From a bacterium (GTDB lineage Bacteria > Zhuqueibacterota > Zhuqueibacteria > Oceanimicrobiales > Oceanimicrobiaceae): DNA of 47,208 nt. The stretch is taken from assembly GCA_046757025.1 (NCBI GenBank), contig JBHHXN010000023.1, positions 1 to 47,208 of the forward strand, given 5' to 3'. Shown in pieces: positions 37,635-38,522 of this stretch (within the stretch, counting starts at the first letter, position 1; each line of letters opens with the position of its first letter). The notes under the pieces are model-generated. The model searched no databases. It saw nothing but the letters and a program-made list of their open reading frames with translations, and was not told the origin of the DNA. The position numbers and the translations under genes are program-made.

Positions 37635-38477
37635 TTAACTCAAAGAAGGTCTCACAGCTGTGAATTTAACACTTGCCACATTTCCTCCTACCAGAGCGAG
37701 ATCTTCCTCAGCAGGAGGCGGAGTGAAATCTTCGCCAGGACAACACGCCATTGCTTCCAATTCTTCGGGAGTGAGAGTATGATGAGCCACGATCTGAATC
37801 TCAACAAAACCCGCCTTTTTTACCGTCTGCCAGTATTCCTTTTCTGCAATTGCCCCTCCCAAACATCCCGCCCAACTTAACTGGAAGCGCTCCCGCAATT
37901 CAGGGTTAATGTCATTTGTAAAAACAATATCCGAGATGGCGAGCCTCCCTCCGGGCCTCAGAATACGAAAGGCCTCTTTATAAACGGCGTCTTTGTCGGA
38001 GCACAAATTGATGACACAGTTTGATATCACAACGTCTGTGCAACTGTCGGGAAGTTGAGAATTCCCCATATCTGCGACACAGAGTTCAATGCTTCTGTCT
38101 TTCAATCCTGCCTCCGTCACCGTCTGCTTTGCTCGTTCAATCATTTGATGAGTAAAATCGATACCGACCACCTTACCCTGTTCACCGACTTTATTCGCAG
38201 CAAGAATGACGTCTATCCCGCCGCCGCAACCAAAATCTACCACCACATTGCCAGGCTGGAGTTTCGCGAAGCCAGTGGGATTACCACAACCCCGTGAGAG
38301 ATTGAGAGCAAGCTCTGGCACCAAATCAAGTTCTGCCTGCCCATAGAGTCCTGAATCAATTGCATAGCCCGAACCGGGCTCTCTCTTGCTTGGTCAACAG
38401 GATTCCTTGTTGCCGCCCGTTTCAGCGAATTTGCCATAGCGGGTCTTCACAATTTGTCTGATTTCATTACTTTTCAT
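37635..38477 (-). CDS. arsM: Arsenite methyltransferase-like protein, probable selenoprotein (Sec28 encoded by TGA 38394-38396), 280 aa
   Basis: GCGNP, DFGCGGGID, SNCVINL, WAGC.GGA and C-terminal CC motifs. Upstream in-frame MKSNEIRQIVKTRYGKFAETGGNKESC-TGA-PSK matches the ArsM N-terminus. Confidence 0.85.
38362..38393 (-). promoter_or_regulatory. Bacterial SECIS-like hairpin
   Basis: After UGA: ccaaGCAagagagAGCCC-GGUUC-GGGCUaUGC. The G-starting apical loop lies 18 nt downstream of UGA. Confidence 0.7.
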
Positions 38478-38522
38478 TTTTCTCATTCCTTCTGTTATTT
38501 CAATAACATAAAGGCTCAAGGC

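Follow-up and report, generated by a model that had tools for sequence, protein, structure and literature searches.

A predicted selenocysteine in the N-terminal cysteine pair of an uncatalogued clade of ArsM-like methyltransferases

We describe a methyltransferase gene of the ArsM/AS3MT family whose reading frame continues through one TGA, and comparative evidence strongly indicates that this codon, the 28th, is decoded as selenocysteine (Sec). The gene lies on a bacterial contig (JBHHXN010000023.1, assembly GCA_046757025.1), of which we analysed a stretch of 47,208 nucleotides, referred to here as the window. That the UGA encodes Sec had been proposed from the letters of the window alone, and the proposal is supported by the Sec machinery of the genome, by a homologous column that holds either Cys or TGA, and by metagenomic contigs. 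Selenoproteins are already known in the ArsM family; the novelty is the position of the Sec, in a clade of ArsM-like proteins that has not been catalogued. The gene and the elements around its internal TGA are the following.

37635..38477, minus strand: full gene for an ArsM/AS3MT-family SAM methyltransferase, read through one TGA; 280 codons plus TAA
38394..38396, minus strand: in-frame TGA, codon 28, predicted selenocysteine U28
38397..38399, minus strand: Cys27, first residue of the Cys-Sec pair
38487..38491, minus strand: Shine-Dalgarno-like AAGGA, 9 nt before the start ATG at 38477
38362..38389, minus strand: predicted bacterial SECIS element with a weak 3-bp lower stem; upper stem-loop AGCCC-GGUUC-GGGCU at 38366-38380

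Translation of window:37635-38477(-) gives a frame whose sole internal stop is the TGA at 38394-38396, in the context ESC*PSK (the asterisk marks the stop codon). This bears out the sequence-only reading, which had joined the frame through a single TGA to the ATG at 38477 with its AAGGA; the same reading had noted that the ORF track shortens the gene to 229 aa, and the mechanical ORF list indeed holds only a TTG-initiated ORF of that length (37635-38324). A second in-frame ATG at 38486 abuts the Shine-Dalgarno sequence and has no alignment with relatives. The conserved start is the other one: of 32 TGA loci, 31 have an ATG placed exactly 27 codons ahead of the TGA, and a Shine-Dalgarno-like word is likewise found in 31. 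As judged by comparison of these loci, the 27 codons upstream of the TGA are under purifying selection, with a dN/dS for codons 2-27 of 0.13 against 0.09-0.14 in the core. The TGA itself was sought in environmental assemblies, and contigs from two metagenome runs (X2 and X4) bridge it with zero differences, while contigs of a second strain, among the matches listed, keep the TGA despite 8 differences in 120 nt. The four metagenome runs come from one study, labelled hydrothermal vent metagenome, and may include the source sample.

The same codon recurs far beyond the window. Our genome scan yielded 31 loci, 29 close and 2 remote, with TGA at column 28 in 29/29 of the close ones, and querying metagenomes with a Cys form brought in 9 more TGA loci together with the Cys loci. 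For statistics we used the set of 32 TGA loci already mentioned, which leaves out two duplicates, the interrupted locus L046 and the Cys locus L058; codon 28 is TGA in 32/32, never TAA or TAG. The preceding Cys27 is replaced by Gly in 2 of these 32 (L048, L049) with the TGA retained, and Sec is therefore the retained member of the pair. Among the best 120 database homologues the site reads Cys-Cys in 40 and Cys-Trp in 12, another 67 begin downstream of it and 1 lacks the anchor motif, so that Cys or TGA occupies position 28, as an alignment of homologues had been expected to show. We infer that the 12 Trp residues are TGA codons translated under an alternative code, because several such proteins overrun the usual end with further W residues. 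All 5 database proteins that could be matched to TGA loci start after the TGA, MBC8258112.1 being one. In one locus (L046:2629-4744) an insertion of ~1.3 kb interrupts the gene immediately behind Cys-TGA, and the end of the insert resembles what we take to be an IS3-family transposase.

Record titles place the TGA loci in Thermodesulfobacteriota, Chloroflexota, Nitrospinota, Myxococcota, SAR324 and Bacillota. Within the window's phylum the clade occurs in 6/167 genomes, all 6 of them in the window's family, five with TGA and one with Cys. The clade gene was absent from 350 further genomes sampled from the phylum of another carrier (G046), and the clade is therefore widespread but sparse.

The window's own genome (G000, 94.8% complete) has the machinery that Sec insertion needs: the search suggested at the outset for selA, selB, selD and a tRNA-Sec found all of them, with selA, selB and two selD genes above curated cut-offs and a tRNA-SeC(tca). 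One of the selD genes itself has an in-frame TGA, in CAG*. A selB match is present in 27/30 other genomes carrying the TGA form; the three without one are G007 (76% complete), G058 and G065, the last of which has selA. Co-occurrence with selB is a permissive test, because selB is found as well in 9/12 genomes of the same family that lack the clade gene, and G003, with both selA and selB, carries the Cys form. Our script scan for selenoproteins in the window's genome was too noisy to define a selenoproteome, and only its background counts are used below. Two further likely selenoproteins were seen in this genome by motif: a frame with LVPV*PMC on contig C2 near 8373, which we presume to be GrdB/PrdB-like, and a frame with HSYDP*LGC on contig C158 near 2211, presumably a hydrogenase large subunit-like protein.

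A hairpin follows the TGA at the place where a bacterial SECIS element would be expected. The stem AGCCC/GGGCU with a GGUUC loop, which had been described as starting 18 nt after the UGA, is indeed found at 38366-38380, with 18 nt between the UGA and the loop; an additional G-C pair closed by RNAfold leaves a GUU loop. The GCA/UGC lower stem that had also been described stands less firmly: its 3 bp form in 39- and 52-nt folds and are lost in a 67-nt fold. Published bSECIS constraints (PMC13188914) ask for a loop 16-37 nt after the UGA, a loop of 3-9 nt with G in its first two positions, a stem of 4-16 bp and a minimum free energy of at most -7.5. The SECIS check that the sequence-only reading had called for gave values inside these bounds, with a spacer of 18-19 nt, a stem of 5-6 bp, and -8.6 kcal/mol for the hairpin (-10.6 for 39 nt). 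The folding energy alone is not beyond chance (z -1.37, with 24/200 shuffles equally good), and we therefore relied on conservation as evidence. As a background, we took the 2150 TGAs that terminate open frames of 150 codons or more in the window's genome: only 6 are followed by an equally strong hairpin with its loop at position 17-22, and 51 conform to a looser published SECIS rule. A uniform rule was applied to the loci: the loop had to start 17-22 nt after the codon and have G in its first two positions, and the energy had to be at most -5 kcal/mol. By this rule 39/39 distinct TGA loci have the hairpin, vs 2/19 distinct Cys loci. Pairing in the upper stem reaches 93.8% in alignment A2, two pairs show two-sided changes, and 1/500 shuffles scored as high, in a test whose shuffles ignore relatedness and whose structure came from the window's own sequence; where two pairs are broken, in 5 rows, the same hairpin forms with a one-base shift. 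The lower stem is weaker, at 89.6% paired, with one pair broken in 8/32. Synonymous divergence is 0.34 in the stem codons against 0.63-0.69 elsewhere.

Could the TGA simply be a stop? Under this account an N-terminal peptide would be released and a shorter enzyme, without the first cysteine pair, would restart downstream. The 67 database homologues that begin after the site might seem to speak for it, and ArsMs without N-terminal cysteines can still methylate arsenic, according to the part of PMC6950371 available to us. Yet a downstream start is not conserved, codon 40 being GTG in 13/32 loci and ATT in the window's gene, whereas the ATG, the Shine-Dalgarno sequence and the selection on the 27 upstream codons are; and the stop is always TGA, aligned with Cys and accompanied by the hairpin. 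We regard a true stop as very improbable. Even less credible, to the point of being negligible, is that the TGA is a sequencing error, the mark of a nonsense pseudogene, or a Trp or Gly codon in a genome-wide alternative code. The W at column 28 of twelve database homologues could be cited for recoding, but the overrun of several of these proteins, with more W, looks like the result of an alternative code applied to a short contig. Ordinary genes in the window's genome end in TGA, among them an arsM on contig C119, and a tRNA-SeC is present. The recurrence of the TGA in 39 distinct loci and in the second strain refutes these readings, and leaves Sec decoding as the one on which we build.

The protein belongs with the arsenic methyltransferases by fold and by most of its cysteines. 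Its best NCBIfam match (best 25 of 47 families) is NF008823, arsenite methyltransferase, at 243.9 bits, below the cut-off of 263; four other clade members, at 241-255 bits, also fall below it, and among the matches listed in the profile search no NCBIfam model covers the clade. An AlphaFold2 model built on an alignment of 120 sequences reached a pLDDT of 89.5, with residues 30-35 below 50, and replaced a single-sequence model with a pLDDT of 35.5. It contains a SAM-binding class I methyltransferase domain and has the ArsM fold: its 11 best structure matches are all AS3MT, CrArsM or CmArsM, with TM 0.66-0.70. Alignment to 4kw7/4fr0 and comparison across the family give the following residues.

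38217..38237, minus strand: SAM-binding motif I DFGCGGG, residues 81-87
38286..38288, minus strand: Cys64 in GCGNP, equivalent to CmArsM Cys72; invariant in alignment A3
38016..38018, minus strand: Cys154 in SNCV, equivalent to CmArsM Cys174, an arsenic ligand; invariant in A3
38001..38003, minus strand: Cys159 (SNCVINLC), a clade-specific extra cysteine; in 50/50 U/W rows and 0/31 canonical rows
37863..37865, minus strand: Cys205 in AGCLGG, equivalent to CmArsM Cys224; the Sec position in catalogued ArsM selenoproteins, Cys here; invariant in A3
37740..37745, minus strand: Cys245-Cys246 in MACCPG, a clade-specific motif with C246 nearly invariant; absent from 31 canonical and 12 UxxG rows

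Codon 205 is TGT, and Cys stands there in all 38 U28 rows. The C-terminal CC pair that had been listed among the cysteines exists as C245-C246, and it sits 34 residues before the end, within the clade's own MxCCPG motif, instead of at the terminus. A published criterion for ArsM, as given in the portion of PMC5552862 at hand, is the presence of at least 3 of 4 cysteines equivalent to CmArsM 44, 72, 174 and 224; here C64, C154 and C205 are firm equivalents, and C27/U28 lie in the Cys44 region, in a register that is uncertain. The correspondence of U28 to Cys44 is of low confidence, as the alignment to CrArsM places U28 on the TSAC cysteine with a posterior of 3-4 and that to CmArsM is gapped by 7 residues.

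Of the 156 rows in a tree, 113 (those with TGA, Trp or Cys and a subgroup with P-C-P) share one branch of length 1.0 with an SH-aLRT of 100, and the 31 canonical and 12 UxxG rows fall outside it. The tree was built without the N-terminal site, by a quick search with SH-aLRT only, and long branches were flagged among the outer rows. Either Sec or Cys may have come first in the clade, whose base is an open fork; 5 changes would account for the Cys forms, and a single origin is possible. The P-C-P rows (L157-L166) form a sister subclade (7 rows) in which P-C-P replaces the Cys pair and which has lost Cys205 and the CC pair, so this scaffold can drift from arsenic chemistry. Within that subclade an aquaporin-family gene follows L158, and P0122 has a 170-aa N-terminal extension with no Pfam match, which we take to resemble a heavy-metal-associated domain.

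The clade differs from every Sec-containing ArsM relative with which we compared it. In the catalogues, as far as their available portions go, selenoprotein ArsM is described by the motif UxxG, alongside three UxxG fusion families (PMC13188914); it is also listed in PMC9312934 and PMC2398784, and its row in the supplement of PMC5029168 gives 41 genes in 39 organisms, with no positions. The published ArsM selenoprotein sequences that we compared (8 from GOS, 6 from deep-Sep file 1 and the representative WP_011987699.1; PMC12013277 supplements) have Sec at column 205 in 15/15. Our genome sample held 15 other ArsM-like matches with a TGA, of which 12 have it at column 205, one has it as the terminal stop and two are broken genes. 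The listings of selenoprotein ArsM in PMC13188914 and PMC9312934 cite Fomenko et al. 2007. The UxxG form (NF008823/PRK11873; WP_011987699.1) is the nearest comparison: it has the same fold and family, one UGA at a conserved cysteine with a bSECIS-type hairpin, and it occurs in the same phyla as the clade (12 such genes in 351 genomes searched). It differs in having Sec at the C-terminal arsenic ligand, CmArsM Cys224, where the clade gene has Cys205 and places its Sec at column 28, and the two belong to different clades. Eight UxxG-type genes (L113, L115-L119, L123, L125) share a near-identical hairpin ~17-36 nt after the TGA, with a CTCACC/TTCACC/TCACAC-type stem around CGG/CCGG, a SECIS different from that of the clade. 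Two UxxG-type genes (L121, L126) carry a further TGA at their end, as TGA-x-P-K-stop, in keeping with the UXPK-star name of NF047649.

More distant relatives are set apart in other ways. The NF041536 (DUF2284), NF041537 (AhpD) and NF047649 (UXPK-star) fusions share an ArsM-like domain with Sec, but they have UxxG (plus CxxU), 2-3 Sec and fused domains, whereas the window protein has a single TGA and no fusion and scores 159-168 bits against cut-offs of 460-575. Canonical ArsMs (NF008823, CmArsM, CrArsM, human AS3MT) have in common with it an N-terminal helix followed by a cysteine pair, GCGNP, the SAM motif, SNCV and xGCxxGA; the window protein, at ~40% identity, differs by the Sec in its N-terminal pair, the extra Cys159 and MxCCPG, another C-terminal third and a place outside ars clusters. 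HgcA-CU, SaoL, SaoC and MbdU, CU-motif selenoproteins that act in metal(loid) metabolism, likewise have Cys-Sec where homologues have Cys-Cys, and are likewise truncated in databases, according to the part of 10.1101/2022.07.06.499078 available to us; the likeness is in the motif only, the folds being unrelated. MduS (CxxU, 2 Sec) is listed with a different motif. An N-terminal CU form of ArsM was found neither in our literature search nor in the seven mentions of 'methyltransferase' in the available text of a 2026 review, and a listing in BSepDB, in Haft and Tolstoy 2025 or in Fomenko 2007 is possible.

The genomic setting of the gene says little about a partner. The neighbours are a DUF4139 protein and valS upstream and recG downstream, and the absence of flanking ars genes noted from sequence holds. 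The DUF4139 protein (window:38523-39896, minus strand, 457 aa, a weak Pfam match below cut-off) ends 45 nt before the methyltransferase start, and the two genes may be co-transcribed. A promoter scan found 7 promoter-like sites vs 3.2 expected, and the accompanying terminator scan found no terminator after the methyltransferase gene. Across clade loci, 161/189 flanking ORFs are singletons in neighbourhood clustering, which found no conserved partner gene; scans covered 117 flanking ORFs at 1e-12 and 60, for the most part ones scanned before, at 1e-5. Two unrelated TGA loci have an MtrA-like (PF04208) gene as the immediate neighbour of the clade gene, at L049:1264-2073 and L141:3836-4519. Arsenite methyltransferase genes typically, though not necessarily, sit in or near an ars cluster, and the clade gene does not; the exception is L145/L147, which adjoin a divergent ArsR-family gene, and in L145 a canonical arsM comes next. 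None of the 22 genomes with an acr3 match, many of them in short contigs, has the clade gene near acr3, whereas in 7/16 genomes holding both, canonical arsM and acr3 are no more than 15 kb apart, a comparison limited by fragmented assemblies. Canonical ArsM is also present in 21/31 carriers, the window's own genome included, and was not seen in the other 10, these genomes being incomplete.

That genome holds other genes of metalloid chemistry. On contig C119 (L016:3-2809) four genes follow one another on the same strand: a MarR-family gene, a canonical arsM (305.9 bits) and hgcA (430.2), these last two both scoring above cut-off, and a partial hgcB that the locus end truncates (95.6 vs a cut-off of 99). 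This row links arsenic and mercury methylation genes in the window's genome. A third, larger ArsM-like gene (L017/L020, contig C7:2645-3328) has YGCGDP and a CC end and by eye resembles an arsenosugar-type ArsM. A partial acr3 stands at the end of contig C180 (9-521).

How might Sec28 act in such an enzyme? In the model for CmArsM, as set out in the available part of PMC6138428, Cys174 and Cys224 bind the arsenical, and Cys44 (or Cys72) reduces enzyme-bound MAs(V) to give a Cys44-Cys72 disulfide that thioredoxin resolves; Cys44 and Cys72 are both required for the first methylation only. In the clade protein, SelB with Sec-tRNA would bind the hairpin, whose loop begins 18 nt past the UGA, and insert Sec, so that full-length protein would be made only with selenium available. 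By analogy with CmArsM (PMC6138428), Cys154 and Cys205 would bind As(III), and SAM would donate the methyl group. Sec28, on a flexible N-terminal arm, would replace CmArsM Cys44 and reduce bound MAs(V) to MAs(III), forming a selenenyl-sulfide with Cys64 or Cys27 that thioredoxin or another thiol would re-reduce; the extra cysteines 159 and 246 may relay electrons or bind metal(loid). A selenolate is a better nucleophile than a thiolate and is more easily re-reduced. Judging from the fold, the conserved cysteines and the CmArsM analogy, we consider it fairly probable that the enzyme methylates arsenite with Sec28 as reductant.

We count in favour of arsenite methylation the intact four-site cysteine set (PMC5552862) and the ArsR-family gene beside L145/L147, and against plain detoxification the unconserved flanks, the distance from acr3, the prevalence of canonical ArsM among carriers and the loss of Cys205 in the P-C-P subgroup. 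The same observations bear on an alternative that accepts the selenoprotein but sees in it a specialised paralogue whose main substrate is something other than inorganic arsenite: methylarsenite or aromatic arsenicals, thioarsenicals, Sb(III), Se/Te species or a thiol, which the Cys-Sec arm and the extra cysteines would bind or reduce. The long, fully supported branch of the clade, its scores under the NF008823 cut-off and the presence of Cys159 and Cys246, missing in canonical ArsM, would all suit such a role, as would a canonical ArsM already encoded in most carriers, the separation from acr3, and a sister subclade without Cys205, one member of which (P0122) is extended at its N-terminus. 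On the other hand, all four ArsM-defining cysteines (PMC5552862) are kept, with C64, C154 and C205 invariant in A3, the best structural matches are arsenic methyltransferases, and about a third of carriers, in genomes that are incomplete, show no canonical ArsM. We think another main substrate rather doubtful, at something like one chance in three. The link between selenium and arsenic methylation drawn in the sequence-only reading accordingly keeps its basis in the ArsM fold and the conserved cysteines and loses some ground to the scores below cut-off, the position outside ars clusters and the frequent company of canonical ArsM; we would infer it at that strength. For the broader reading, that this is a widespread, uncatalogued arsenic methyltransferase clade with Sec at the reducing cysteine (the Cys44 site), and hence a second independent recruitment of selenium in the family at a mechanistically different site, our confidence is tentative, falling slightly short of an even chance.

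Sec is usually a catalytic redox residue, and it was in that way that the C-terminal cysteine of ArsM was first flagged. Because all 5 database proteins matched to TGA loci begin after the TGA, the clade shows up as a three-cysteine or unnamed methyltransferase in surveys of arsM that rely on conserved cysteines, and searches for selenoproteins based on UxxG would miss it. The carriers come from sediment, peat and marine bacteria, and the record titles of many name sulfate-reducer or syntroph lineages; anaerobic arsenic methylators are poorly known. If the proposed function is right, methylation of arsenic, or of another metalloid, would be tied to selenium supply in these organisms, and the natural Cys-Sec, Gly-Sec and Cys-Cys variants would provide a direct test of the disulfide-cascade model.
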